Source: a virus. From it: 53,620 nucleotides of DNA. Position numbers and translations under genes: made by a program. The notes under the pieces were generated by a model. That model had not been told where the DNA came from. It saw only the letters and a program-made list of their open reading frames with translations, and made no database searches. Location: the IMG/VR virus record IMGVR_UViG_3300037851_000502, positions 1 to 53,620 of that record; one strand, given 5' to 3'. Shown piece after piece: positions 6,849 to 24,233 of this stretch. The number at the start of each line of letters is the position of its first letter. Position 1 is the stretch's first letter.

Positions 6849-8363
6849 TCAGAACGGGGATTTCTGCACCATGCTCGGAACAGCAAACCCTTCCGTCTGC
6901 TTCGGGAACTCCGGGACTGTCCATACGTTCAACCCCTTCCCTTTAATAGTTATGAATTTATGCTCCCCACCGATTTCTTTTAGTATCGAGGAAACCTGAT
7001 GTACTTTCAAATCCTTGAATTTACTTTTGTCAAGGTACGAAAGAAAATCGCTCATCTTGAACCAATGCCGTCCCTCGCTCGTCCACGGCTTCCCGATAAT
7101 CATCTCCTCCCTCGCCCGGGCCTGCGCCCGTGAAGTCAAGAATTTTTCCAACAATTCCAGCATCTGCCCGCGCGGGCTCGCATCAACCGGAGCCTCAATC
7201 ACCGTCACCTTATCGAGTAGTCCCTGGATTATTGTTTGCCATAAAACCCTGTCAACCATTGGAGGCATTTTATTCAGGGCCTCGATACATCGTCTTTGAA
7301 ATTTCAATTGGTCCTGAAGTTCATTTGTATTCAACTCCAACCGTCCGCCATTCTCAATATCAATAAACCATACCGGAGGACTCGCAGCGTATTTCGTAAG
7401 CCCGGCCAACTGTAATGAAAAAGCCCCCGCGCCTATACCGTGTACCCGGCTCCTGCACACATCAAGATTGCAATGCCCGCATATCGGGGGCTTTGAGCAC
7501 GCATAATTGTATGTCTTCCGTCGAAGGCTTTTCGCCACGGCTTTGACTTCAATATCAGAAAGTACGGGCTTCATGTACTTCTGATTACAGTTAACTAAAT
7601 CTATTTCCCATGTCTCCGGTCTTGCTTTTCTCAGGTACACCCCGAGATTGAACAACCCGTCATTCCGCGTCCCTGGGGAAAAGCCATGCGAGGCAAGAAA
7701 TTGCAGACACGGCGGGCCATCCGTAAAATCAACGGATAGCCCTATCGATGACGCCATCAACTCCGATGGCAGGACCCGGGAAGCCTCGGCATATTTTAAA
7801 AAATCTTCGGCAGAAAGTTTATTTCCAGATTTATCAAAACCATACCGCAATGTCTTTTCTACATCAAAATATGGCATGTTTATCCACGAACCGATATCCC
7901 CGCGCTCAGCAAGAATCTCACTTTGCTTCGGGAATATCTCCGCGGTCCCATACCCAATACCGGCCGAAAATTCTTTGAGCTTTGACCGCAGCTCCCCCGC
8001 GGGTATCGCTTCTTTCAGAAAACAAAATGCGTGAAGCCCTCCGCTCTTTGACCGGCAGCATACGAGCGGGAATTTCAATTCAGAAACTTTCTTCGCTATT
8101 GCCGGTAAATCTATATCATCATACACATCAACGTCTATCGCCCCGAACCAGCATTTTGAATCATCTTGTATCGGGACTATCCCGACACTGTTTTTTCCTT
8201 CGAGGTGGTCTTTCCACAAGGTATCAGTGACAGGGGCAATAAGCACCGTGGCTTTACCCACGAGCTTATTGCTCCCCTGTTCCTTACCTGATATGATATA
8301 CCGGCCATGGGCCCTTTCAAGCCCTAAGAATAGCCGATGGAAACGGACGGCAAGAGCTTCCAC
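6849..8363 (-). CDS. Primase-polymerase (archaeo-eukaryotic primase superfamily) with C-terminal extension
   Basis: GAIDVDVYDD (DxD), CCRSKSGGLHAFCF (sGGxH motif); GTG start; sits in the replication module. Confidence 0.8.
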   Translation of the reverse strand: MEALAVRFHRLFLGLERAHGRYIISGKEQGSNKLVGKATVLIAPVTDTLWKDHLEGKNSVGIVPIQDDSKCWFGAIDVDVYDDIDLPAIAKKVSELKFPLVCCRSKSGGLHAFCFLKEAIPAGELRSKLKEFSAGIGYGTAEIFPKQSEILAERGDIGSWINMPYFDVEKTLRYGFDKSGNKLSAEDFLKYAEASRVLPSELMASSIGLSVDFTDGPPCLQFLASHGFSPGTRNDGLFNLGVYLRKARPETWEIDLVNCNQKYMKPVLSDIEVKAVAKSLRRKTYNYACSKPPICGHCNLDVCRSRVHGIGAGAFSLQLAGLTKYAASPPVWFIDIENGGRLELNTNELQDQLKFQRRCIEALNKMPPMVDRVLWQTIIQGLLDKVTVIEAPVDASPRGQMLELLEKFLTSRAQARAREEMIIGKPWTSEGRHWFKMSDFLSYLDKSKFKDLKVHQVSSILKEIGGEHKFITIKGKGLNVWTVPEFPKQTEGFAVPSMVQKSPF

Positions 8364-10429: not shown

Positions 10430-10572
10430 AGTAAATAGTTACTCAGGGTATTAATTATCCGATACATATTTTCATTCACCCTTTGTTGATATCGCTCAAT
10501 ATTGCCTTGATGATTGACACTGAATTCTATTTTCGGGTTTATTGTTTCTTCTGTGATATTTTTAATAGCCAT
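10426..10572 (-). CDS. Small hypothetical protein (48 aa, below ORF-track cutoff)
   Basis: Manual translation: MAIKNITEETINPKIEFSVNHQGNIERYQQRVNENMYRIINTLSNYLL. It is coupled at both ends (TAATG with the polymerase stop, ATGA with the next start). Confidence 0.45.
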   Translation of the reverse strand: MAIKNITEETINPKIEFSVNHQGNIERYQQRVNENMYRIINTLSNYLL

Positions 10573-12410
10573 TATCTCTTCAATATTGACTTCTGCTCCC
10601 CCCACGATGGCCCGGTTGTCACATCGACTTTCATCGGCACCAATAATTTCATGCAGTCCCGCATTGCCTCATGCGCGATTTTCATTGTCCGCTCGTCCGC
10701 ATCCGCAAAATCGAGTTCGTCATGCACGGTGATATTCGGCACAAGCCCAGCGTCCCAGCACACAAGCATCGCCTTCTTCATCATATCGGCCGAGCTGCCT
10801 TGGTCAACGGAATTCCATGCTCGATATGTGAAATAACGAATTACATTAGGACCCCATTTTTTAATCGCATCCTCCTTTGATAAAGGCTGGATCCCTTTTC
10901 CACCTCTCGGAGGACCATATAGATTATATCTCCTTCTACGTCCGAGGATTGTCTTTACAAACCCCACTCGCTCAGCCTGTTTTGCAGCCCTATCTGTTAG
11001 CGGACGGATAAACGGCAGTCCTCGGTGATACTTTTCAATTATTTCTTTCGCGGTTGCCATATCCATACCGAGCTGCATTGCTAATTTGTCCTTACCCATT
11101 CCATAGGATAGGCCAAGATTAATAGACTTTGCAGGCCTCCTGCCTATGCCAGCCATATCTGCAACCATCTGATGAAAGTCCGTGTCCGGATTCTCATCAT
11201 AATTCCTTTTTGCTTCCTCGGCCCCGGGGAGACCCAATAATACGGCATAGTGGATAAGGACCCTGAACTCCTGCTGACTGTAATCGAGTTTGCACCATGT
11301 CTTCCCCGGTTCAGAAACAAAAAGAGACCGTATCTTTGGGCCAAGATTTTCCTCTCGTGATGGGACTTGTTGCAAGTTCGGATTCGCAGAGGAAAACCTG
11401 CCGCTTCGAGTGCCGTAATCATCCCTGCGAGTGGCGAAAAATTGAGGGTATACTCTTCCGTTTACTGCTGAATCTATGATTTTTGACTGTATGAACACAG
11501 ACCCGGCTCGGTCAAGCTGCCTGGCTTCGAGCACTTTCTTAAAAAAAGGATTGTCCTGGTCTTCAAGCCACTCATTACAAAAAGAGGGGTTATCTTTGTC
11601 CGTCATTAAAAAGTCTATACCAACGGAACGGCAGTAATCCCCGATTGAATTATTTGACCATATATCAATATCAGGCCTTGACAGCTTGCGTATTTCTGCT
11701 AATACAAGTTTATTCCTTGTATCAAGGTCTTTTCTCAATATGTCCGCTTTTTCAATGTCAACCGGAACCCCTTTGAACCGCATTGCCAGCATGAGGTCGA
11801 GTAGTTTTGTCTCTATCAAAAACAAATCCCACAACTCCTCATTGATGAGTTTTGCCCGCTGCTTCTCAAATATTCTCAAAGGCAGAACAGCATCTGTCTT
11901 TCCGTACTTTGATACTTCGAACCCCGGCAACATCCACAACTTATTTTTTATTTCTTCCGGACTTATACCATATTTTAGACCTGCACCAATCATCCCGCGC
12001 TCATCTTTACCCTCCCCGAGATATTCCTGTGCAAGCGCTTCGAGTTTATATGTCGACTTGTTTTCGTCCAATAGCGGTTCGGCAGTCTGCACATCATATT
12101 TCAACCCTCCGACTTCAACCCCGGATACCTTCAGCCATTCCAAATCGTATAGGATATTCGCACCCAGTTTCGGCTGGTTGCCTTTCAGCTCGTCCTTTGC
12201 CCATGCAATAACCTGCTCCGGGTTTTCCACGTTACCCGATTCATGCTTCAACGGGAAATATTCCGCGAATCCGTCCGGCGTCGCTACGGACAGCCCTATG
12301 AGATATCCCTCACCCCGTATGCCGCCGGGCCCGCGGTCGAGGAGACCCGGGTCATTCGTCTCCACGTCAATAGAAATTATCTGCGCGTCTTTGAGGGAGG
12401 GTAGATTCAC
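10572..12410 (-). CDS. Family A DNA polymerase with 3'-5' exonuclease domain
   Basis: Exo I ISIDVETND, Exo II ILYDLEWL, RSGRFSSANPNLQQVP, motif A DYSQQEFRVL, motif B RRPAKSINLGLSYGMG, motif C VHDELDF. GTG start overlaps the upstream stop (GTGA). Confidence 0.95.
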   Translation of the reverse strand: MNLPSLKDAQIISIDVETNDPGLLDRGPGGIRGEGYLIGLSVATPDGFAEYFPLKHESGNVENPEQVIAWAKDELKGNQPKLGANILYDLEWLKVSGVEVGGLKYDVQTAEPLLDENKSTYKLEALAQEYLGEGKDERGMIGAGLKYGISPEEIKNKLWMLPGFEVSKYGKTDAVLPLRIFEKQRAKLINEELWDLFLIETKLLDLMLAMRFKGVPVDIEKADILRKDLDTRNKLVLAEIRKLSRPDIDIWSNNSIGDYCRSVGIDFLMTDKDNPSFCNEWLEDQDNPFFKKVLEARQLDRAGSVFIQSKIIDSAVNGRVYPQFFATRRDDYGTRSGRFSSANPNLQQVPSREENLGPKIRSLFVSEPGKTWCKLDYSQQEFRVLIHYAVLLGLPGAEEAKRNYDENPDTDFHQMVADMAGIGRRPAKSINLGLSYGMGKDKLAMQLGMDMATAKEIIEKYHRGLPFIRPLTDRAAKQAERVGFVKTILGRRRRYNLYGPPRGGKGIQPLSKEDAIKKWGPNVIRYFTYRAWNSVDQGSSADMMKKAMLVCWDAGLVPNITVHDELDFADADERTMKIAHEAMRDCMKLLVPMKVDVTTGPSWGEQKSILKR

Positions 12411-13898: not shown

Positions 13899-14042
13899 TC
13901 ACCAAGTCACAGTATAGGTTAAAAGACCAGCCGCAAGCCAATACGCGATCCTTCTCCAGTCACCGGTCGGTATATACCCACAAGCGGCAAGAACGTCAAT
14001 AATAATCAACACGGTTGGCAATATCTTTTCTTTGGGAATCAC
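13899..14042 (-). CDS. Small membrane protein (47 aa, GTG start)
   Basis: Manual translation: (V)IPKEKILPTVLIIIDVLAACGYIPTGDWRRIAYWLAAGLLTYTVTW, with two hydrophobic segments. The GTG overlaps the upstream stop (GTGA). Confidence 0.35.
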   Translation of the reverse strand: MIPKEKILPTVLIIIDVLAACGYIPTGDWRRIAYWLAAGLLTYTVTW

Positions 14043-16327
14043 GCCGGCACCTCAGCAACGTCAAATAATGTCGGTTGATGTATCTCGTGTTCTGCGTATT
14101 GCAAGTTTTTTACTGCAATATTATAATACGATTCTTTCAGTTCAATCCCTATCGCTTTTCTGCCAAAATTTAAAGCCTGATAAGCCTCGCTTCCAATTCC
14201 GAGAAACGGGGTAAGAAGCAACTCACCCGGATTGCTGTACAGCTTTATACACCTCTCGATTGTTCCAAGCTGCAATGGACAAATGTGTTTTTCATCATTC
14301 ACATCCCGGCCCTCTGCATATCGAAGCGTATCGGATTCGTGTATCCCTGTCCAAATTCCACCAGCCCAATCAATCCATGTTTCATTATCCGCCTCTCCGT
14401 TTTCTACCGGACGAACAGGTACAGCACAATCGCCAGGCTTTTTGAAAAACAGCATCCTGTCAAGAATACACGGTCTTGATTGAGATGAATCTTTCCTGAA
14501 TTGTGTAAACAAAAGCCCTTTTGACTTTGTTCTGATTGCCTGCGATTGCGGGTTTTTACCAACCACAGCATAGCCGTGATAAATCCATCCAGCACTTATA
14601 TGCGCCTGAATAACTGCACCGGGAAAATCCTTCATTCCAATAAATCCATCCTTCATAGCCATAGCCGCAATATCAGACGTATGAACACACGATATGCGTC
14701 CAGCCTTTGTGACTCGCAACACTTCTCTAATAATAAAATTGTAATGCTTGAAAAACTCATCCCAATCTTTTGAATTACCCAAATCATAATCGCTTGCGGA
14801 ATATGTATATAAATCTGCAAAAGGTGGAGAATATACAGACACGTCAATTGATTCTGATTCTATTTTCGGTAATTGCTGGCACGAATCACCGAGTATTGCA
14901 GTCCAGTTTTTACCCTTATTCACAACGCCAATATCCTGCACGATTATTTTTTCTTCCATATTTTTTAACTCCATTTCTTCATAATTTTTAATATGCTTAA
15001 TCATCTCGGTTGACATTCTCATTGCCATTTCCTCTTTCCGCATTACGTTGTCATAGATTTCGCGCTCTGCAGTTGTAAGAATTATATGCACGTTCACCGG
15101 CTTCTTTTGGCCGTATCTCCATTCCCTGCGTATGCACTGGTAAAATGCCTCCCACGAATCGGATAACCCAAAAAACGCCATATTGTGAGCATTCTGAAAA
15201 TTAAGCCCAAATCCGGCGATCTTTGGCTTTGTGATAATTATACGTGCTTTTCCATCTTGGAAATCCTCTATCGCCTGAGCTTTTACCTCAGCATCATCAC
15301 TGCCGGATATTTCAACACAATCAGAAATTTCTTTTTTTAACAGGTCGGACTCTTGATTCAGCCCACACCATATAACCCACTGCTCACCGTTGTTCACAAG
15401 ATCCTTCAAACAAGATAGTTTTCTATCAACAGTGTTTTTCCTAATATTTAACCTATCTCCAAGCCCCTTTAGACCACTGAAAAACAACCCACCGTCCGGC
15501 ACAATATCAACACCAATCCAATGTGTTTCTTTTACCAGTTCTGGCAGCTTAAAATCATGGCTGTCATATCCAAGGTCTGATGGAGACTTAACAGCCATAG
15601 CCCATGAAGCAATCCACTTGTAAAAAGATTCTCGCGCATAATTTCTCAACCGCCACTCCTGCCCCTTGGTTGCGGATTCTTTTTGCTTTAAAACCGAATA
15701 CCCGCCAGACTCTTTTTCTACAATGGTTTCTATCTGTTTGTTTGCATGAATAAAAAACGTAGCAAGCATTTCGTTGTTTTTCATCACACCAAGGAACTCC
15801 GCATGATTTCCTATTTCGGCATCATCATTCGGTGCCGGTGTGGCTGTACAGCAAAGGCGGTACGGCGTTTCTGAGAACATTTGAGTTATCAACCGTCTTG
15901 TAGCACCGTCGATAGATTTCAGAATTGATGATTCATCAAGCACGACAGAATTAAACAGCTTCGGGTCAAACCGTTCTATTATTTCATAGTTTGTAATATT
16001 TATTCCGTCAATCAAATCACTATTCGACCGCGTGTAGTGTACATCTGTTCCGGTTATTTTTTTAGCCAATCTAACCGTCTGACGAGCAACTGAAAGCGGG
16101 GCAACAATCAAAGACCGTCCACCTATCAGCCGTGCCCATTCTGTTTGGCAATGGGTCTTTCCAAGTCCGGTATCAAGGAACAAAGCACACCGGCCCTTTT
16201 TAACAGCCCACTTGGTAATATCCCGCTGAAAGTCAAACAACTTATCCGATATCCCGACAGCGTCGAATCCATATGACTTGTTTCTAATACGCTTGGAAAA
16301 AACAAAGTTCTGATACTCGTCCATCAT
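14039..16327 (-). CDS. SNF2-like helicase fused to a beta-class amino (N6-A/N4-C) DNA methyltransferase
   Basis: Helicase motifs: FLDTGLGKTHCQ, VVLDESSILKS, REWRYGQKKPVNV. MTase motifs: motif IV VYSPPFADLY precedes motif I FLGIGSEAYQA. I prefer the ATG pair at 16327, preceded by AAAGGGAAT; the track extends to 16543. Confidence 0.85.
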   Translation of the reverse strand: MMDEYQNFVFSKRIRNKSYGFDAVGISDKLFDFQRDITKWAVKKGRCALFLDTGLGKTHCQTEWARLIGGRSLIVAPLSVARQTVRLAKKITGTDVHYTRSNSDLIDGINITNYEIIERFDPKLFNSVVLDESSILKSIDGATRRLITQMFSETPYRLCCTATPAPNDDAEIGNHAEFLGVMKNNEMLATFFIHANKQIETIVEKESGGYSVLKQKESATKGQEWRLRNYARESFYKWIASWAMAVKSPSDLGYDSHDFKLPELVKETHWIGVDIVPDGGLFFSGLKGLGDRLNIRKNTVDRKLSCLKDLVNNGEQWVIWCGLNQESDLLKKEISDCVEISGSDDAEVKAQAIEDFQDGKARIIITKPKIAGFGLNFQNAHNMAFFGLSDSWEAFYQCIRREWRYGQKKPVNVHIILTTAEREIYDNVMRKEEMAMRMSTEMIKHIKNYEEMELKNMEEKIIVQDIGVVNKGKNWTAILGDSCQQLPKIESESIDVSVYSPPFADLYTYSASDYDLGNSKDWDEFFKHYNFIIREVLRVTKAGRISCVHTSDIAAMAMKDGFIGMKDFPGAVIQAHISAGWIYHGYAVVGKNPQSQAIRTKSKGLLFTQFRKDSSQSRPCILDRMLFFKKPGDCAVPVRPVENGEADNETWIDWAGGIWTGIHESDTLRYAEGRDVNDEKHICPLQLGTIERCIKLYSNPGELLLTPFLGIGSEAYQALNFGRKAIGIELKESYYNIAVKNLQYAEHEIHQPTLFDVAEVPA

Positions 16328-16391
16328 ATTCCCTTTCTTTGCCCATGCAGCCGGGCGTAATGACAGGTGCGGGTGGTGCAGTGGTAGGAGT

Positions 16392-16685
16392 TCAATTATT
16401 CCGCAACCATCGTTCCCGGTATGCGCCGGTACTGTTTTTTTCATCGTTGAACCAGAACAACAGTTCATTCTCCAACCAGGTGAAACAATCCAAAAGCGTC
16501 GGCTTGCCGTCAAGCGGAAACACCGGGCTTTTACGGTTGTCAACCACCTCGGCTATCACCCGTATCTTCCTGTGCTCAACGGCTTTCACCTCGTTCAACC
16601 GCTGTCTCTCACCAATAATCGAACTCCGAAAAAGTATCCTGTCGTGCTCGGTCTCTTTTGTGTGGTCACGAATTTGAATAGGCAT
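16392..16685 (-). CDS. Hypothetical protein (97 aa)
   Basis: ORF, operon context. Confidence 0.5.
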   Translation of the reverse strand: MPIQIRDHTKETEHDRILFRSSIIGERQRLNEVKAVEHRKIRVIAEVVDNRKSPVFPLDGKPTLLDCFTWLENELLFWFNDEKNSTGAYRERWLRNN

Positions 16686-16697
16686 GGTATATGTCCT

Positions 16698-16886
16698 TTA
16701 GTTCAAGTTCCTTTTCCCTGGAATCATTTTCAAAGCTTTCCACATCAACCCCGTCGACTCCGCCCAGAACACTATCCTAAATCCACAAGACAGTGTCCCC
16801 CGGCCTTTGTCCTGTATCGGACAGTCCGGCCGGACCTTGCACTTCCGACACTCATCCGGGATTTTTATGTCGACGACTTTTTTCAT
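16698..16886 (-). CDS. Small Cys-rich protein
   Basis: CRKCKVRPDC...C pattern; ORF only. Confidence 0.4.
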   Translation of the reverse strand: MKKVVDIKIPDECRKCKVRPDCPIQDKGRGTLSCGFRIVFWAESTGLMWKALKMIPGKRNLN

Positions 16887-16985
16887 AGTTCATATACCTC
16901 GATACTTGATTCAAACGTGCAAACCATTATCCACCGGGAATTCACGAACAGGATTTCAAACCGCTGGAGGTTCGGCGACCACGGG

Positions 16986-17258
16986 TTAGACATTCTGATT
17001 CTCCTTGTTTTTCTGTTCTTCGTCGTAGGTCTTTCGCCATTCAGCGGCAGCGCGTTCTCCGATTTCTTCCTCCAGCTTCGTGGCATATTCGAATAAGCCA
17101 ATAGTATCGAGCTCGGAAAGCAGGACGTAATCCTTCAGGTCCCGAGCCCGCTCGGCAATCCTGGCAAGGCAATCATGCAGGATGATAAACTCACGGGACA
17201 TCTCGGTCTCATGTGCAGCTTTCAGAAGTACGGCCGGGGTGTTGATTTTTTGTTTCAT
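16986..17258 (-). CDS. Hypothetical protein (90 aa)
   Basis: ORF; first gene after the 17259-17477 structured spacer. Confidence 0.5.
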   Translation of the reverse strand: MKQKINTPAVLLKAAHETEMSREFIILHDCLARIAERARDLKDYVLLSELDTIGLFEYATKLEEEIGERAAAEWRKTYDEEQKNKENQNV

Positions 17259-17350
17259 GATGGTTTAGCTCCGATGGAATTAGCCGCCAATATGGTAACT
17301 ATTTTAGGAATACAGCCCTTTCGTATTTTGTCATAATTTCTTCTTTCTCT

Positions 17351-17374
17351 TAAAATAAACCCCGGGGGAGGGGT
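17351..17374 (-). terminator. Possible intrinsic terminator
   Basis: Minus-strand RNA ACCCC-UCCCCC-GGGGU followed by UUAUUUU. The stem is short, so this is weak. Confidence 0.3.
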
Positions 17375-17415
17375 CGGTTACGCTCTTATCTGGGCTGACC
17401 TCTATGGCCTACCAG

Positions 17416-17477
17416 CCTGCCCCGGGTCCCGCCGCGCCGGGGTTGCAGTCCCCCGTGAGCGGCAGCTACGCGGCAGG
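17416..17477 (-). other. GC-rich nested hairpin element immediately after a stop codon
   Basis: Minus-strand pairings: CCUGCC/GGCAGG, CUGCCGC/GCGGCGG (one G-U), GGGG/CCCC. It starts with the same TAACC(U)GCCGCGUAG string that precedes the hammerhead. Confidence 0.35.
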
Positions 17478-17849
17478 TTAGTCGTTTTCATCATCAAACG
17501 ATTCCCATTTCCCGAGGACAGCGATCAGTCCATCGGTAACAGTTGTTGGATCATCGCATTCGATGTATCTCAGATCTGTAGCCGGTTTCATTCTGCCGTA
17601 ACCTGAATTATAATGATATGGCTCCTGAACGGCATAAAATTTGCCGTTCAATTCATAAATCGAATGATCAATTTTTGTTTCAACCTCATCCAACTGCTCT
17701 TTATAGTCCTGAGAGGTTCCCTCGCCAAATGCGGAGACCATGGCCTCACAGGCAGCATTCTCGTCACTAATTATGTAGGTCTCCCCCCAGTTATACGGCG
17801 TAATCCTCAGACCCGTTGCGATTTCGTTTTTCAATTCTGAGCGTTTCAT
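17478..17849 (-). CDS. Hypothetical acidic protein (123 aa)
   Basis: ORF with a GGAGA SD inside a conserved leader. Confidence 0.6.
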   Translation of the reverse strand: MKRSELKNEIATGLRITPYNWGETYIISDENAACEAMVSAFGEGTSQDYKEQLDEVETKIDHSIYELNGKFYAVQEPYHYNSGYGRMKPATDLRYIECDDPTTVTDGLIAVLGKWESFDDEND

Positions 17850-17855
17850 TTTTCA

Positions 17856-17873
17856 TCTCCTCTGCCGAGGTTT
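17856..17873 (-). promoter_or_regulatory. Conserved 18-nt translation leader, copy 1 (AAACCUCGGCAGAGGAGA)
   Basis: Identical 18-mer at 18209-18226. CCUC-GGCA-GAGG can fold so that part of the SD is paired. Confidence 0.6.
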
Positions 17874-17878
17874 GGGGC

Positions 17879-17936
17879 ATCTGGCCTCATCAGTGCCGGA
17901 GATACCGGCAGACCGGGCAAGCGCCCGGTTTCGGCC
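17879..17936 (-). ncRNA. Hammerhead ribozyme, type II topology
   Basis: Minus-strand RNA: GGCC-GAAA-CCGGGC-GCUU-GCCCGG-UC/UGCCGG-UAUCU-CCGGCA-CUGAUGA-GGCC-AGAU. The full core is present (CUGAUGA, GAA, A15.1-U16.1, C17). Stem III is 7 bp, stem I is 6 bp, and stem II is open (GGCC/GGCC). Loop I AUCU is complementary to the AGAU 3' of stem II. Confidence 0.85.
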
Positions 17937-17946
17937 TACGCGGCGG

Positions 17947-18201
17947 TTAAAATCTCTCGATTACCTCATCTATTGTCCAGGGGTTGTTACCATCTGATAC
18001 CAGGTGGTCGGATGCCACCATCTCCCGGATTAACGCCATGCCCCTGGGGTTTGTAATTTTTGTCTTGCCAAAATCCAGCGTGCCGCTGTTACCCGTCCAG
18101 TGTACGTATGGGGCGGTAATGATAATTTTTGAGCCGTAATCACGGATGGTGTAATACGTGTCATAGATTCCGGTTGTGCAATTAATCGTTGTCGTTTTCA
18201 T
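17947..18201 (-). CDS. Hypothetical protein (84 aa)
   Basis: ORF with the conserved leader and a GGAGA SD. Confidence 0.6.
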   Translation of the reverse strand: MKTTTINCTTGIYDTYYTIRDYGSKIIITAPYVHWTGNSGTLDFGKTKITNPRGMALIREMVASDHLVSDGNNPWTIDEVIERF

Positions 18202-18208
18202 TTTTGTC

Positions 18209-18226
18209 TCTCCTCTGCCGAGGTTT
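18209..18226 (-). promoter_or_regulatory. Conserved 18-nt translation leader, copy 2
   Basis: Identical to 17856-17873; preceded on the RNA by the hairpin CCCGG-CGAA-CCGGG. Confidence 0.6.
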
Positions 18227-18370
18227 CCCGGTTCGCCGGGCCGTCCGAAAGATTCTTCTTTCTAACAATCAATATACCTCAAAACAGGCCAAATGAATCA
18301 ATTTATTATCAAAGATGTTCAATAAGTGTATTCTATCTGTGAATACAAAAGGTGTATATAAAACAATGAC

Positions 18371-18556
18371 TTATATGCTATTGATTTCTTGCTGTATCGC
18401 CACTTCGGCAGAACCAGCTTTTTTCCGTGTCCAAGTCCGCCGGCAATCCTGCCAGAAAAACCAATTAAACCGGACGAAAGGGGCATACCGCTCCTGCGTC
18501 TTTCCGCACAGAGCAACGATACAAACCCTCCGGGCAACCACACCGTATGATGACAC
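18371..18556 (-). CDS. Hypothetical Trp-rich protein (61 aa)
   Basis: The start abuts the upstream stop; several competing ORFs exist in this stretch. Confidence 0.3.
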   Translation of the reverse strand: MSSYGVVARRVCIVALCGKTQERYAPFVRFNWFFWQDCRRTWTRKKAGSAEVAIQQEINSI

Positions 18557-18557
18557 T

Positions 18558-18779
18558 TCATACCGCCACCGCCCGCTTCAACGCAAGGTCCGCGCAATCC
18601 AGGACCTTCTTCGTCGCCGGTTGCCCGCGTATCGCCGCGATAAACTGCTGATACGAACACCCGCTCCCAGCCAGGTAATACCGCCAGAACCCGGCGAGAT
18701 TATCACACGACAGCTTCTTTATCTGCTGCACTTTGTCAAGCGACAGCGTTCTTGTCTTTGTCACCGGCCGTCCGCTCAT
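18558..18779 (-). CDS. Hypothetical protein, possible small DNA-binding regulator
   Basis: Second gene of the leftward arm; helix-rich; no motif I can name with confidence. Confidence 0.4.
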   Translation of the reverse strand: MSGRPVTKTRTLSLDKVQQIKKLSCDNLAGFWRYYLAGSGCSYQQFIAAIRGQPATKKVLDCADLALKRAVAV

Positions 18780-18939
18780 CTCCGTCCTCCATTTCCTTTA
18801 TTATATCGAGAGCTTCATTCAAGCCATCCATACGCCCATGCAAGGAAGCAATGTCCATTGCAGTATGCTCAGGCTTATTCGTCTTTGTAAAGTAGTAAGC
18901 CGCCCGAGTACGAAGGTGCGTTTTTAAGACATCAAACAT
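18736..18939 (-). CDS. Hypothetical protein (67 aa), first gene of the leftward arm
   Basis: ORF abutting the control region. Confidence 0.4.
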   Translation of the reverse strand: MFDVLKTHLRTRAAYYFTKTNKPEHTAMDIASLHGRMDGLNEALDIIKEMEDGDERTAGDKDKNAVA

Positions 18940-19162
18940 AGTTTAATTCTATCTTTCTTATTTGTCAATATGGATTAAATTCACCCCGTCAAAAGGCGGT
19001 AATGATAATATACACTAAAAATATTATAAAATGCAATTAATTTTTATTGCAGAAATCCTGGAGTACCTACGTGAACTATTGAAGGTTTTACTTTAAGATA
19101 GGCAAAAAATTCCCTATTTTAGATCATTCGGTAATTTTTACCGATTTCGGTAAGAATCGGAG

Positions 19163-19474
19163 TATTGGCATTTTTCGTTAAGTAAGGATTGAGCACCATA
19201 CAAGACTACTAAAATCAGTGGTTTATTGGCAATTGATTAAATCAATATAGGAACCAATTGTATTTAATCAATTGATTTTTCGTCTATATAAGAGCTCCCA
19301 AATTGAATATTGGTATCAAAAAATATTTTAAATGCAGTGTATATATGATTTTCCGCATATAAATTTTTTTTTAAATTCCTATAGGCAATGTTGAAATAGG
19401 TTGTCCAATAAGCCTATGATTTTAATAGACTTATCCTATATTGGCAAGGTAATACGTTGCCAATAGTGCCAATA
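19163..19474. repeat. Dispersed 8-mer sites TATTGGCA / TGCCAATA (candidate operator or iteron set)
   Basis: Perfect copies at 19163, 19224 and 19439 (TATTGGCA) and at 19458 and 19467 (TGCCAATA). 19441-19463 forms TTGGCAA-N9-TTGCCAA. Imperfect copies lie near 19404, 19515 and 19588. Confidence 0.6.
19230..19274. repeat. 13-bp perfect inverted repeat (CAATTGATTAAAT ... ATTTAATCAATTG), 19-bp spacer
   Basis: Arms at 19230-19242 and 19262-19274, read directly. Confidence 0.8.
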
Positions 19475-19685
19475 GCCTCCAACGGTTGTCTATATATATC
19501 AATGGTTTATCTTATATTGGACTTGACAAATAATAAAATATCTTTTTTGTTAAAAAAATACTTAAGTCATTGATAGTTGTTTCAAGATATTGGGCCATTC
19601 GTAAGAAATTTATTTTAAAAAAAGATTTACAACAGGGTGTATATCATTATATTATTAAATTAAGCGAACACTTTCAAAATCAATT

Positions 19686-20108
19686 ATGGCTTTATCCCCA
19701 GAAAGAGCACGAAAAATACTTACTCCATGGAAGCCGGGGCAGAGTGGAAATTTAAAAGGTCGCGGGCATGTAAAAAGTTTTAAAACATTAATCACCCCGT
19801 ACTTAAATTCACCCGCACCAGAAGCCCTCCGGAAAAAGGTAGAGAAACTTTTAGGGATTACACTTCCAGAAACTGTCACGGGACTGGAATTAATGGGCCT
19901 CCGAAATCTTTCTGATTCTATCGACTCTGGAAGAACCGATTCACAGAATATTCTTCTTGAGCGCACCGAAGGAAAAGTCACGAACCCAGTAGCATTCACC
20001 GGTACACCTCCTCCGGTGTTTAATCTTTCCGGGGACACTGCAAAAGAGGTTGTAGAAAAACTGTCCGGGTATTCAAAGACGAATGAAAACAACTCGGATA
20101 TTCAATGA
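19686..20108 (+). CDS. terS: Putative terminase small subunit
   Basis: Lies immediately upstream of and overlapping terL. The N-terminal WKPGQSGNLKGRG resembles the PGQSGNPxGRP motif of small-terminase-like phage proteins. Confidence 0.5.
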   Translation: MALSPERARKILTPWKPGQSGNLKGRGHVKSFKTLITPYLNSPAPEALRKKVEKLLGITLPETVTGLELMGLRNLSDSIDSGRTDSQNILLERTEGKVTNPVAFTGTPPPVFNLSGDTAKEVVEKLSGYSKTNENNSDIQ

Positions 20109-21249
20109 GAACACCCTCGCATTTTTTGACAAAACAAAAAGGCGGGCGCTCAACGAGGGCGGGACATCCTCTACAAAAACTTTTTCTATTCTCCAGCTTC
20201 TTGTCTTCCTCGCCGAATACGCAAAAGAACAAACGCTCATCTCCGTTGTTTCTGAATCCATGCCGCATCTCAAACGCGGTTGCATCCGTGATTTCCTGGT
20301 TATTCTCGGGGACCGGTATCAGGACGAGCTTTGGAATAAATCCGAGGCCCTGTATGAATTCCCAAATAACCTGGGGAAGATTGAATTTTTCTCAGCGGAC
20401 CAGGCGAGTAAGTTGCGCGGCGGTCGTCGGGACATTCTTTTTATCAATGAGTGCAATAATATTCCGTATGAAGCATACATGGAACTGGATATCCGAACAC
20501 GTCTTTTCACGTTTCTTGATTGGAACCCTGTCGGGGAATTTTGGGCGCATGATAAAAATCTTATCCATGATGCGGGGACTCAGTATATCCATAGCACATA
20601 TCTTGACGGAGTGGATGTTCTTCCGGCATCTGTCGTGGCGAATATCGAAGCTCAAAAAGATAAGGACCCGAATTGGTGGAATGTTTACGGTCTCGGCAAG
20701 CTGGGGAACGTCACGGGTATTGTCCATCCTTTTTTCATTCAGGAAGATGCTCTACCAGAGCATGAGCAGCAGAAAGAATTTTATGGCCTTGATTTCGGGT
20801 TTACGAATGATCCGACGTCGCTTATCCGGAACATTATCACCGGTGGGGATGAGCTTCATTCCGAGCAGCTCATATATGAGACAGGCCTTGACAATAACCA
20901 AATTGCAAAACGGATGGAGCAACTCGGGGTGGATAAATCGGCAGTTGTCTGGGGTGATTCGGCAGAACCTAAAAGTATTTCTGAAATCAGTAAGTACGGG
21001 TTTAATATCAACCCTGCCCCCAAGGGTAAAGACTCCATTACAAACGGCATACAGCTCGTGAACCAGCATCGGCAGTTCTGGACGAAGAACTCTGTTGATT
21101 GCATCAAGGAGCAGCGGAATTATCGGTATGAGGTCACGAAGGATGGAAAGTTGACCAACATACCAAGGGACCTCTTCAATCATTCGATGGATGCCCGGCG
21201 GTATGCAGTGATGGGGGAGAAACTTAAAGCAGGGATTCAAGTCTTTTAA
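20083..21249 (+). CDS. terL: Terminase large subunit (PBSX/Terminase_3-like)
   Basis: Walker A-like NEGGTSSTKT, Walker B DILFINECNN, nuclease region VVWGDSAEPKSISEISKYGF. Confidence 0.85.
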   Translation: MKTTRIFNENTLAFFDKTKRRALNEGGTSSTKTFSILQLLVFLAEYAKEQTLISVVSESMPHLKRGCIRDFLVILGDRYQDELWNKSEALYEFPNNLGKIEFFSADQASKLRGGRRDILFINECNNIPYEAYMELDIRTRLFTFLDWNPVGEFWAHDKNLIHDAGTQYIHSTYLDGVDVLPASVVANIEAQKDKDPNWWNVYGLGKLGNVTGIVHPFFIQEDALPEHEQQKEFYGLDFGFTNDPTSLIRNIITGGDELHSEQLIYETGLDNNQIAKRMEQLGVDKSAVVWGDSAEPKSISEISKYGFNINPAPKGKDSITNGIQLVNQHRQFWTKNSVDCIKEQRNYRYEVTKDGKLTNIPRDLFNHSMDARRYAVMGEKLKAGIQVF

Positions 21250-21269
21250 GGGCCGAAGGGATTTTGATA

Positions 21270-24233
21270 ATGCTTGTTGACCGTCATGGAAAAGATATCG
21301 TCGTAGAGAAAGCGGCTGTGATGCAGAACGCGGACCCGGCGCTATGGTTTTCCAGCGACTCAGGGGCGTCGGTCGCCATTGCGGATGTCGAGAAGCAACC
21401 GTATAAATTTTACTGGACGATTTACGCCTGTGCCCGCGTGATAGTTAAAAACATTTCCAGGCTTCCTCGATACCTTACCACTCTCCGCGGTGAATCTAAA
21501 AAGATTACTGAGCATGAAGTCCTGAAACTTTTGGCCAAACCGAACCCGGCGCTTACTCGTACATCTTTTTATGAGCAGATAGGGCTGAGCCTGTTGCTCC
21601 CCGCAGCGCAGTCCTATGGCAAGAACATGAAGGGCGGAGAGTGCTTTATCGTTGGTGAAATGGCTAACGGTAACAAAGCGGATTTCGCTCGGGGCGATAT
21701 CCCGCTCATGCTTTTCTGTTTCAACTCGTCCATGATGTCCCCCGCGTTTTCAGAACAGAAGAAGTGGATAGGGTGGAATTATTCTGTACCGAATACATCC
21801 TCGAAAGCAGAGTTTTACCGGACGACGGAAGTCATTCGGGTTTTCAATCTCAATCCCTATAATATTCTCGAAGGTCTGTCCCCGATTTCATCTGTGCAGT
21901 TGTCCATGGTCCGTGATATCAAGGCGGATTTATGGAATAGCAGGATGTATGACAACGATGCGATTCCCCAGGGTGTTTTGAAATCAGACCAGCAACTTAA
22001 TGAGACAGACGCGCGGGAGATTTCAACACGGTGGTATGAGAGGTATGGTGGGCCCGGGAATACTCGCCGTGTTGCCGTGCTTGGCAAGGGTGTGGAGTTT
22101 CAGAATATCTCTGTCGCGGCGAAGGACATGGAATTCTCGGAGCAAAAAGATAAAGCCATGCGCGAAATCATCAGCGTCATGGGCTTGAATAAAATTGCTC
22201 TCGGGGACTATGAACAGATAAACCGGGCGACGATTGAAATTGGTCGGTTGATGCTTTGGGAAGATACATACCTCCCGATTGACGAACAGATAATGGAGGC
22301 TTTTAATTCCCAGTGGATAAACAATATCGACCCGCGGCAGGTACTCGAACTCAAAGCCGATACTTCAGGGATATCCATCCTAAAAAAGCAGTATGATAAA
22401 CAGGTTGCAGCATCGAAGACCATGTATGATATGGGTGTTCCCGCGGCGACGGCGTTCCGGGTGAATGAGGTACCGATAACTGAGGAAGATATCGCGAATG
22501 CTCCTTGGTTACTCGAAAAGCCTGTCCAATCTTTCGCCCCTGTCCTCCCCCCGGAAGAAGAAAAACCGGAGCCGGAAAAAGCAGTGAAGTCTGGATTCGT
22601 TTATCGGTTGGACAAGGATGAGCGGGACAAGTTTTCGATGTCATATATCGAAAAGGTTCTTGACCCGGGTGAAAAGACCATGGTGTCCCGGCTCATCAAG
22701 TTCTTTATCCGTGAACGGAATGAGATGCAGGACAATGTCGACGAGTGGTTGAAGCGGAACGCCAAATCATTGACGAAGGCCCTGGTGAACCCGGCCGTAT
22801 TTCTTCTTGACATAAGCGAAGAGGCTGAGGACATGATAAAAACGGTGTATCGCCCGCAGGTTATTGAGCAGCTCAAGCGGGAAAAGGTGGAGTTAATCGA
22901 GGAACTGGGGGACGTGGTTGAATGGAATGTCACGGACCCGCTCATCAATTCGTATGTGAATGCCCGCCGGGCGGGGATGAAACGGGTAATCATGAATGAG
23001 ATGAAGACCGTTTCAGACCAGATAAGTGATGCCGTTGAAGCTGGAACTGCGAATAATGCTACGATTGCAGAGATGGCTTCGAGCATAAAGCAGGCAATCG
23101 CGGACGTCGGGGAACAATATAAGAATCAGAGTGTCACAATTGCCCGGACAGAGACAGGAATCATTTCATCGAAGCAGCGATTTGAGACATTCAAGGAAAT
23201 CGGGGCGGAGTATAAGCAGTGGATAAATGCCCATGATGAAAAGGTTCGGGATTCACATCGTGACGGGACCGGGGACGGGGGAAAGATTCTCGGGATAAAT
23301 GATATCTTCCCGAATACCGGATTGATGTACCCGCTCGAAGCAGGCGGGGCAGCGGGAGAGGTGATTAATTGTGTTCTTCCGGGGACAATAGTTTCAGGTT
23401 CATTTGTGGCCGCTCTAAAATCCTTTTATTCTGGTAAGGCCATCGAATTGACCACGAGGAACGGTAACCGGGTTTGCGTGACGGTCAATCACCCCATAAC
23501 CACAAGCAGAGGGTTTATTCCTGCTTACAGCATCAAGAAAGGCGATGACATTGTTTGCCATCGCGGAGATGTTGGCACCTTCTCTTCGAGTTGGTACGCT
23601 GATAAACAGAACGGAGAATCCCGCGTTGAGGATGTCTTCAACACGATTTCGGCGAATGGAACCTCGTGGATTAAAACACCATCCCGCTTCGACTTCGATG
23701 GCGATGGAGAATTTCTGCGACAGCAAATCGATCTTGTGGTAGGGCTTCGTTCCTTGGGAGGCAGGGGTGCTACTCTTGATTCTTCCTTGATGGGTGAAAT
23801 AGAAGCCCCGTTTGTTGAGTTCGGAAATAAGTTCAAGTTCATATCTCCCGATAGGTCCAGTATCATGGGTGCCTTGAGGCCCGGTTTCTTTGGACCCTCT
23901 TCGAGCGGACCAAGCCGCAGAGAGTTTTCTGATAATGGCATCGGGGTCCTTTCTGATGTTCTGCCATTTAAGGAATTCCGCTTCGGAGCTGCCGCGGATA
24001 TGAATATTTCTCGTTATAAGTATTCGACGGATGACGCTTCGGCTTACGAGTCTTTTCTTAGCGACCTGATTTTCACTCATCCCGGAGAGGTATTCATTGA
24101 TGACGTTATCGATGTCAGGACCTTTGATTATTCTGGACATGTTTACGACCTCCAATCGAAAGTAGGATATTTCAACAGCAATAATATACTTTCTCGCAAT
24201 TGTCGATGCACTCTTATTCTCGTATCAAAGTAA
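21270..24233 (+). CDS. Portal protein (HK97-type) fused to MuF/SPP1-gp7-like head morphogenesis domain, interrupted by an intein
   Basis: Portal-like N-terminal ~430 aa (LLAKPNPALTRTSFYEQ..., RWYERYGGPGNTRRVAVLG, MEFSEQKDKAMREIISVMGL). MuF region ARTETGIISS...WINAHDEKVRDSHRDGTG. The C-terminus ...GEVIN/CRCTL completes the NCRC motif only after intein removal. The first ATG is 21270 (track TTG at 21264). Confidence 0.85.
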   Translation: MLVDRHGKDIVVEKAAVMQNADPALWFSSDSGASVAIADVEKQPYKFYWTIYACARVIVKNISRLPRYLTTLRGESKKITEHEVLKLLAKPNPALTRTSFYEQIGLSLLLPAAQSYGKNMKGGECFIVGEMANGNKADFARGDIPLMLFCFNSSMMSPAFSEQKKWIGWNYSVPNTSSKAEFYRTTEVIRVFNLNPYNILEGLSPISSVQLSMVRDIKADLWNSRMYDNDAIPQGVLKSDQQLNETDAREISTRWYERYGGPGNTRRVAVLGKGVEFQNISVAAKDMEFSEQKDKAMREIISVMGLNKIALGDYEQINRATIEIGRLMLWEDTYLPIDEQIMEAFNSQWINNIDPRQVLELKADTSGISILKKQYDKQVAASKTMYDMGVPAATAFRVNEVPITEEDIANAPWLLEKPVQSFAPVLPPEEEKPEPEKAVKSGFVYRLDKDERDKFSMSYIEKVLDPGEKTMVSRLIKFFIRERNEMQDNVDEWLKRNAKSLTKALVNPAVFLLDISEEAEDMIKTVYRPQVIEQLKREKVELIEELGDVVEWNVTDPLINSYVNARRAGMKRVIMNEMKTVSDQISDAVEAGTANNATIAEMASSIKQAIADVGEQYKNQSVTIARTETGIISSKQRFETFKEIGAEYKQWINAHDEKVRDSHRDGTGDGGKILGINDIFPNTGLMYPLEAGGAAGEVINCVLPGTIVSGSFVAALKSFYSGKAIELTTRNGNRVCVTVNHPITTSRGFIPAYSIKKGDDIVCHRGDVGTFSSSWYADKQNGESRVEDVFNTISANGTSWIKTPSRFDFDGDGEFLRQQIDLVVGLRSLGGRGATLDSSLMGEIEAPFVEFGNKFKFISPDRSSIMGALRPGFFGPSSSGPSRREFSDNGIGVLSDVLPFKEFRFGAAADMNISRYKYSTDDASAYESFLSDLIFTHPGEVFIDDVIDVRTFDYSGHVYDLQSKVGYFNSNNILSRNCRCTLILVSK
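23370..24200 (+). mobile_element. Intein (277 aa, Hint fold) inserted in the MuF NCRC motif
   Basis: Block A CVLPGTIV (Cys1), block B VTVNHPIT (TxxH), block F FDYSGHVYDLQS, block G NNILSRN followed by +1 Cys (CRC). The flanking extein residues join to give GEVIN-CRCT. Confidence 0.8.
23415..24140 (-). CDS. Antisense ORF inside the intein: HTH plus PD-(D/E)xK (DUF559/Vsr-like) putative homing endonuclease
   Basis: 241 codons from the ATG at 24140 (246 from the TTG at 24155), with GGAGG 8 nt upstream. HTH-like segment GMSENQVAKKRLVSRSVIRRIL. Nuclease-like segments YELELISELNKRGFYFTHQ, YHKIDLLSQKFSIAIEVEAG and NRVEDILNAGFSVLFIS. It lies wholly within the intein boundaries. Confidence 0.55.
   Translation of the reverse strand: MSRIIKGPDIDNVINEYLSGMSENQVAKKRLVSRSVIRRILITRNIHIRGSSEAEFLKWQNIRKDPDAIIRKLSAAWSARRGSKETGPQGTHDTGPIGRYELELISELNKRGFYFTHQGRIKSSTPASQGTKPYHKIDLLSQKFSIAIEVEAGWCFNPRGSIRRNRVEDILNAGFSVLFISVPTRREGANISAMANNVIAFLDAVSRNKPSACGYGVIDRHANPVTVPRGQFDGLTRIKGF

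Follow-up and report, generated by a model that had tools for sequence, protein, structure and literature searches.

RNA scission by a hammerhead ribozyme leaves 2',3'-cyclic phosphate and 5'-OH ends. Hammerheads of the type II permutation flank single genes in prophages, and their involvement in the processing of long phage transcripts was proposed in 2011 (PMC3088659). The uncoupling of cistron stability and translation is the standard hypothesis for such elements and is still described as unproven (PMC3088659; PMC6765202), and the role of bacterial and phage hammerheads is regarded as suggested but undefined (PMC6765202). Cleavage in vivo has been reported for three type II hammerheads that adjoin phage-like genes in D. 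vulgaris (PMC8782182), and in the haloviruses HF1 and HF2 a mapped transcript 5' end lies near the cleavage site of the HHphage variant (PMC3088659). In the type II hammerheads that have been tested, a stabilising pseudoknot is critical for fast cleavage (PMC3088659).

A site of this kind lies on the minus strand of a complete metagenomic contig from a tailed phage, the 53,620 bp of which constitute the window, i.e. the whole stretch of DNA that was analysed. It resembles the bacterial and prophage type II hammerheads (RF02276; PMC3088659) in its core, its permutation, its consensus stem I, its G10.1-C11.1 pair and its GUC cleavage triplet, and it also shares with them a tail complementary to loop I directly past stem II and a position on the coding strand of an interval between small genes, ahead of a ribosome-binding site (PMC3088659). 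The context class described by Perreault et al. in 2011, namely a phage genome, the coding strand, a location between genes and proximity to the downstream start, is thereby reproduced. The copy differs from typical type II members (RF02276) in having a loop I of 5 nt rather than about 10 nt and a stem II of 4 bp where 3 bp or fewer is usual, and its possible pseudoknot of 4 bp compares with a mean of 4.75 bp, and up to 7 bp, in the long-loop relatives among the matches listed. This phage carries one hammerhead copy, whereas in the prophage examples several copies flank genes (PMC3088659). The HHphage variant is more distant, as it belongs to an archaeal virus, has a variant core and, instead of separating two ORFs, is located at the first ORF of a polycistronic transcript (PMC3088659).

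The ribozyme adds a further example to a well-known family, whose habitual phage context it shares, and is neither a new kind of element nor a new mechanism. The favoured reading, to which a probability of about 0.78 is assigned, is that the site is a genuine self-cleaving type II hammerhead within a short leftward transcription unit, where predicted cleavage would convert a bicistronic mRNA into two monocistronic RNAs.

Architecture of the ribozyme and its putative transcription unit

The minus strand at 17936-17879 reads GGCC-GAAA-CCGGGC-GCUU-GCCCGG-U-C|UGCCGG-UAUCU-CCGGCA-CUGAUGA-GGCC-AGAU, where the vertical bar indicates the predicted scission. The elements of the ribozyme are as follows:

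17875..17936, minus strand: whole type II hammerhead, from the Rfam RF02276 alignment (model positions 1-66)
17933..17936, minus strand: 5'-proximal strand of stem II, GGCC (C11.1 adjoins G12), which pairs with 17883-17886 and covaries in relatives
17929..17932, minus strand: core G12 A13 A14 and A15.1 (GAAA), invariant in all 91 viral type II instances among the matches listed
17912..17929, minus strand: stem III hairpin of 7 bp, comprising A15.1-U16.1 and CCGGGC/GCCCGG, with a GCUU loop at 17919-17922
17911, minus strand: C17, with predicted scission 3' of the base (17911/17910), from the core alignment
17894..17910, minus strand: stem I hairpin UGCCGG/CCGGCA (17910-17905/17899-17894) of 6 bp, with a 5-nt loop UAUCU at 17904-17900
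17887..17893, minus strand: core C3-A9, CUGAUGA, by sequence reading
17883..17886, minus strand: 3'-proximal strand of stem II, GGCC (G10.1 adjoins A9), from the descriptor and the fold
17876..17882, minus strand: 3' tail AGAUGCC, for which three pairings are possible, each excluding the others

The invariant hammerhead core is complete and comprises CUGAUGA, G12A13A14, the A15.1-U16.1 pair (U16.1 at 17912) and a non-G N17, here C17. The pairs adjacent to the core, which were used as a rejection criterion by Perreault et al. in 2011 (PMC3088659), are all Watson-Crick: G10.1-C11.1 is formed by G17886-C17933, U1.1-A2.1 by U17910-A17894 and A15.1-U16.1 by A17929-U17912. Loops cap stems I and III whereas stem II is left open, the topology of the type II permutation, and the lengths of stems I, II and III are 6, 4 and 7 bp. 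The unconstrained minimum free energy (MFE) fold of a 76-nt region is the hammerhead three-way junction, at -34.8 kcal/mol (z=-2.6). The sequence-only reading had described a complete type II hammerhead on this strand, and every element was recovered at the coordinates it had given, with Rfam, a custom descriptor and the MFE fold in agreement. Its placement of the cleavage site at 17911/17910, 61 nt ahead of the downstream ATG at 17849, follows from the core alignment, and the intercistronic position that it reported, between ORFs 17947-18201 and 17478-17849 and in the orientation of both, is borne out by the ORF coordinates; the ribozyme starts 10 nt past the upstream stop codon (17949-17947). 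The minus-strand site is, on its sequence, a complete type II hammerhead for which a chance match is very unlikely and activity is predicted.

The genes and signals on either side of the ribozyme are, in the direction of transcription:

18210..18224, minus strand: copy of ACCUCGGCAGAGGAG before the 84-aa gene
17947..18201, minus strand: upstream cistron of 84 aa (ORF), with one homolog at 62% identity
17857..17871, minus strand: leader/translation-initiation element ACCUCGGCAGAGGAG before the 123-aa gene, with a CCUC-GGCA-GAGG hairpin that overlaps the Shine-Dalgarno (SD) sequence and is predicted in every context
17478..17849, minus strand: downstream cistron of 123 aa (ORF), with nine metagenomic homologs at 52-90% identity
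17358..17375, minus strand: terminator-like hairpin and U-run after the 123-aa gene, the sole such site in 17200-19700

Searches of the 84-aa and 123-aa proteins against Pfam, PHROGs, NCBIfam and PDB profiles gave no family or function, and no relatives of either were found in IMG/VR or GTDB genomes. Both genes had been labelled early, a label that derives from their position only. The window contains exactly two perfect copies of the 15-nt ACCUCGGCAGAGGAG element, one per small gene; its hairpin half buries the SD sequence, and the element may serve as a translational operator or bind a protein. Upstream of ACCUCGGCAGAGGAG, the leader of the 84-aa gene additionally possesses a hairpin, CCCGG-CGAA-CCGGG (18227-18240), and a -10-like TATATT (18271-18276, minus strand). 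The hairpin at 17358-17375 likely ends the two-gene transcription unit. From the order of these elements we infer a unit composed of promoter, leader, 84-aa gene, ribozyme, leader, 123-aa gene and terminator, the two genes of which would be co-transcribed.

Under the favoured reading, the stem III and stem I hairpins of the nascent RNA would fold locally, and the 4-bp stem II would then close the junction. The core would catalyse transesterification 3' of C17 (17911/17910), after which the products would be linked by stem II only (~4 bp), an open helix whose topology leads separation to be expected. The 3' end of the upstream mRNA would be formed by the 7-bp stem III hairpin and bear a 2',3'-cyclic phosphate, and the downstream mRNA would begin with a 5'-OH at U17910, the first base of the 6-bp stem I hairpin, behind which the leader hairpin and SD sequence come next. 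One bicistronic transcript would in this way yield two hairpin-capped monocistronic RNAs, with stability and translation uncoupled. The analysis shows the motif, its significance, its fold, its position and the covariation of its relatives; that the RNA cleaves, which ends it then carries, what becomes of them and how expression is affected are things that we infer here. For annotation, the site provides a probable RNA-processing point in an otherwise uncharacterised environmental phage, with predicted ends at 17911 (2',3'-cyclic phosphate) and 17910 (5'-OH).

Several further features of the two-gene region were observed. The purine run AGAAAGAAGAA is present on the minus strand at 18253-18263, in the putative promoter/leader of the 84-aa gene, and again at 17338-17348, just past the terminator-like hairpin. 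A GC-rich structured stretch at 17386-17477 (minus strand) follows the 123-aa gene and is predicted to fold at -61.8 kcal/mol with the terminator included; its core GCUGCCGCU...GGCGGCG recurs just after the 123-aa homolog of L131/L130, and the motif GCCGCGUAG that opens it (17474-17466) also precedes the hammerhead (17944-17936). This stretch was considered as a further ribozyme and rejected, with no Rfam match at E<=10 beyond noise and a fold z-score of only -2.1.

The two-gene unit belongs to a phage genome of two divergent modules. The leftward module includes an SNF2 helicase fused to an N6/N4 methylase (14039-16543), a family A DNA polymerase (10572-12410), an AEP primase (6849-8363), a UvrD-like helicase and a second SNF2 helicase, and the rightward module includes the large terminase (20083-21249) and a portal-MuF fusion (21264-24233). 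They diverge at an AT-rich region at ~18.9-19.7 kb, within which 750 bp (18940-19690) are non-coding and separate the modules; many sigma-70-like promoter matches lie there on both strands, and 17200-19700 has 14 of them, compared with 6.7+-2.6 in shuffles. The portal-MuF fusion is a plus-strand ORF of 989 aa with a portal domain and a Mu F-like head-morphogenesis domain, and its C-terminal stretch gives a sub-threshold intein-splicing match (28.5 vs 35.8 bits). An independent Logan assembly of 53,523 bp is 100% identical over 16447-19701 (3255 bp, including the ribozyme site), and the sequence at the site is therefore reproducible. No DNA similarity to the 53,620-bp phage sequence was found among the GenBank phages searched.

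Viral relatives and the possible contact between loop I and the 3' tail

Relatives of the ribozyme were collected from IMG/VR with the pattern GUCUGCCGG-N(3-15)-CCGGCACUGAUGA, which specifies an identical stem I and core and from which GAAA, stem II and stem III are absent. At least 120 contigs match, and 91 of the 121 distinct instances among the matches listed exhibit the full type II architecture. The stem I sequence of the ribozyme is exactly the Rfam consensus. In the relatives among the matches listed, all four Watson-Crick pair types occur at positions 3-6 of stem III and positions 2-3 of stem II covary, and all three stems were recovered in a consensus fold with 14 relatives, where stems II and III exhibit compensatory changes. 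An SD sequence and start codon are present within 40 nt downstream on the same strand in 68% of the 90 instances with enough flank, compared with 3% in an opposite-strand control (among the matches listed, an ORF of at least 50 aa with its SD sequence being required), and the distance from the ribozyme core to the SD and ATG, 37 nt in this phage, compares with a family median of 32 nt (among the matches listed). Since its sequence, its strand, which is that of both flanking genes, and its start-codon distance match those of the relatives, the copy is typical of the viral type II family.

A subset of the IMG/VR hammerheads (for example L122, L125, L119, L015, L042 and L115) shares with this copy stem I, the core and a 4-bp stem II (GRCC), and possesses a short loop I of 4-7 nt, mostly U-initial, with an SD sequence and start codon within about 20-45 nt; the flanking genes differ, being unrelated to those of this phage. 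The same stem I and core were also observed in hammerheads with a closed stem II (CUGAUGA-GCAAGAGC-GAAAC) in L024, L041, L044-L046, L050, L052, L065, L070, L084 and L092, which means that these loci would carry the same module as the type II copies, circularly permuted in another way. In L058, L059, L087, L088 and L119, two or three type II copies lie within 0.3-2.6 kb, an arrangement that resembles the reported flanking of prophage genes.

The AUCU of loop I (17903-17900) is complementary to AGAU (17882-17879) directly past stem II, the canonical place for the pseudoknot, and 4 bp is the minimum of the published pseudoknot criterion for type II hammerheads (PMC3088659), a pseudoknot of at least this length being present in the majority of type II members and not universally. 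Among the matches listed, the best loop-tail helix has a mean of 4.75 bp in long-loop relatives (n=68; permuted-tail null 2.85+-0.13 bp) and of 1.87 bp in short-loop relatives (n=23; null 1.74+-0.14 bp), and this phage's copy alone among the 23 short-loop copies has a 4-bp loop-tail complement. Of the tertiary pseudoknot proposed by the sequence-only reading, the 4-bp complement is present in the canonical place, but comparative support for the pseudoknot in the short-loop subclass is absent, and other pairings of the same tail compete with it.

Two other pairings of the tail are possible. One is an extension of stem II by the 5' flank and 3' tail, in which AUGC (17880-17877) pairs with GCGU (17941-17938); this candidate was rejected, as it is marginal in relatives (4.13 vs 3.76+-0.21), where 25 of 500 permutations reach the observed value. 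The other pairs AGAUGCC with GGUAUCU (17906-17900) in a 7-bp helix that breaks stem I and has a duplex energy of -7.8 kcal/mol, compared with -0.5 kcal/mol for the 4-bp AUCU/AGAU. None of the three tail pairings has comparative support in the relatives. Nested folding gives the hammerhead as the MFE structure of every transcript that ends at or before ~17850. In a 121-nt context that includes ~20 nt of downstream coding sequence, an alternative MFE fold at -42.5 kcal/mol is predicted, against -40.4 kcal/mol with the hammerhead enforced, a difference of 2.1 kcal/mol that lies within model error in a nested model that ignores tertiary energy; the alternative helix has a probability of about 0.9 in this context, and stems I and II are disrupted. 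On these modelled energies, the alternative fold is a real uncertainty over the cleavage rate and suggests possible gating.

The same observations bear on a rather unlikely reading, in which the site is a hammerhead by descent that is slow, conformationally gated or effectively inactive, so that transcripts would be mostly bicistronic or cleavage would depend on conditions such as ribosome traffic or ion concentration; its short loop I would make no productive tertiary contact, and the tail would instead pair with GGUAUCU and unfold stem I. The 7-bp helix dominates the nested ensemble of the 121-nt context, as this reading would have it, but nascent transcripts of every shorter length have the hammerhead as their MFE fold, so co-transcriptional folding favours the hammerhead, and the energy difference is small in relation to the error and the omitted tertiary contacts. 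A slow ribozyme would also be consistent with a short-loop subclass that lacks a conserved pseudoknot among the matches listed, and with a tested type II hammerhead in which shortening of the pseudoknot from 6 to 4 bp decreased the rate about 20-fold (PMC3088659); however, at least 23 short-loop copies with intact cores are present in unrelated viral contigs, an argument for maintenance of the subclass. Hammerheads near this gene do decay, given the truncated-core relic beside a 123-aa homolog in L133, whereas the core and core-adjacent pairs of the copy in this phage are intact.

Homologs of the 123-aa gene and the possible origin of the arrangement

In addition to the nine homologs of the 123-aa protein, three more loci were obtained from a metagenome scan. 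No synteny is conserved around the 123-aa homologs, and the gene itself is all that they share with this phage. The homolog of L128/L129, which exhibits 79% identity, has a type II hammerhead just upstream, about 25 nt ahead of its SD sequence, and another just downstream. These hammerheads precede or follow the same gene family but differ from the copy in this phage in their 8-bp stem I of different sequence, their different stem III, their loop I of 7 nt, their clear 5-bp pseudoknot (UGGCU/AGCCA) and the presence of a second copy past the gene, and the genome is non-syntenic. Given that no synteny is shared, the L128 hammerheads are associated with the same gene and are not strictly orthologous. 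The two L128 copies (L128:455-523 and L128:927-999; likewise in L129) have the 5' flank, stem II and pseudoknot tail in common and differ in stems I and III, and the second (L128:927-999) has a GUA cleavage triplet.

A short-loop hammerhead also follows a 53%-identical homolog in L133 (L133:545-605), which has kept all three stems and GAAA but has CAUGA in place of CUGAUGA as its core. From its sequence, this copy is an apparent relic, produced by a 2-nt deletion or by an assembly error. The sequence upstream of the 123-aa homolog could be read in ten distinct backgrounds and lacks a hammerhead in eight of them, and the ribozyme is therefore dispensable for the 123-aa gene. The 84-aa homolog locus (L136/L137) likewise has no hammerhead.

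The homolog of L131, with 81% identity, sits directly behind an AT-rich region with a -10-like TATATT, a small hairpin and ACCUCGGCAGAGGAG. Over its full length, this L131 leader can be aligned to that of the 84-aa gene, and the 123-aa gene of this phage keeps the ACCUCGGCAGAGGAG part only; for the second cistron, the ribozyme occupies the place of the hairpin and promoter of L131. The ACCUCGGCAGAGGAG element is kept ahead of the 123-aa homolog in both L131 (2490-2515) and L130 (1-21). With an identical leader for each cistron and with ribozyme-free relatives, the simple two-gene unit is a natural system well suited to tests of the mRNA-uncoupling hypothesis.

In RiboJ-type insulators, a self-cleaving ribozyme before the ribosome-binding site ensures that the downstream cistron starts at a defined 5' end, capped by a hairpin, whatever sequence lies upstream. 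These insulators are synthetic and consist of a satellite-RNA hammerhead derivative with an added hairpin, whereas the element described here is natural and of the type II permutation. A tentative reading, against which the odds lie, is that phage hammerheads act as portable insulator-like punctuation: the 84-aa gene, the ribozyme and the duplicated leader would have been inserted ahead of the 123-aa gene (cf. L131), cleavage would recreate a hairpin-capped 5' end like that of a promoter-proximal gene, and the 7-nt complementarity between loop and tail might also gate cleavage. If true, small accessory genes could enter phage operons without disturbing their neighbours.

It is quite improbable that the hammerheads serve instead as punctuation of mobile cassettes, i.e. 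that they travel with small accessory genes and mark or help create insertion boundaries, or release single-gene RNAs for circularisation or reuse. The 123-aa gene is indeed found in otherwise unrelated phage backgrounds with no common neighbours, and its homolog is flanked by hammerheads in L128/L129 and accompanied by a relic in L133, but the single hammerhead in the window leaves the gene without flanking copies here, and the one 84-aa homolog (L136/L137) has no hammerhead. Insertion would be consistent with the extra 84-aa gene, ribozyme and duplicated leader relative to L131, with an identical stem I common to at least 120 unrelated viral contigs and with flanked genes that are not constant (Perreault et al., PMC3088659). 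Spliced or circular products were, however, sought by Perreault et al. and none were found (PMC3088659), and the cassette arrangement is itself compatible with mRNA processing as the molecular action.

Covariance scores and significance

Aligned end to end with RF02276 (Hammerhead_II), the site scores 34.7 bits; E is 1.1e-5 when only the local stretch is scanned and 0.0023 for the whole 53,620-nt window on both strands against all 4227 Rfam families, and in a permissive scan Hammerhead_II is the sole Rfam match with E<0.1 in the window. A default Rfam scan at gathering thresholds reported nothing in the window, the RF02276 gathering score being 37, an operational annotation threshold that is neither a structural nor a biochemical property, and the site lying 2.3 bits below it. 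The deficit arises because loop I has 5 nt where the model has ~10, because two extra stem II pairs are treated as insertions and because the tail is non-consensus. A sub-threshold covariance score had been named in the sequence-only reading as grounds for giving up the ribozyme; formally the score is sub-threshold, but calibration on relatives indicates that such a criterion is too strict. Well-formed type II hammerheads in viral and metagenomic contigs score 35.8 (L128), 31.9 (L122), 25.8 (L123) and 24.9 bits (L042), the first of these having a canonical pseudoknot, and the second L128 copy and the L125 hammerhead are unreported by Rfam even at E<=1. As equally well-formed relatives score 24.9-35.8 bits, the RF02276 gathering score is conservative.

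The window contains one occurrence of GAAA-N(10-40)-CUGAUGA, and the custom type II descriptor has a single match, which is this site with stems of 6/4/7 bp. A looser descriptor, with stems of at least 4/3/4 bp, matched 5 times in 3000 first-order Markov randomisations, or ~0.002 per window. A second ribozyme was sought in the window with CUGAUGA/GAAA patterns in both orders and with the permissive Rfam scan, and none was found. A chance resemblance, in which GC-rich intergenic hairpins happen to sit beside CUGAUGA and GAAA with no ribozyme function, is extremely improbable, since the empty default Rfam search and the eight occurrences of CUGAUGA alone in the window, which match chance expectation, are outweighed by the rarity of the full architecture even with relaxed stems, by the window-wide E value and by a strand, intercistronic position, start-codon distance and consensus stem I that fit the family norm.

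The calibration further shows that the Rfam gathering score overlooks a sizeable set of well-formed viral type II hammerheads, notably where loop I is short and stem II has 4 bp. Two other sub-threshold Rfam matches were observed in two unrelated comparison contigs: a FuFi-1 RNA at L125:13216-13335 (36.7 vs 59.6 bits, E=1.8e-4) and suhB/mmgR at L042:1396-1471 (34.7 vs 41 bits).
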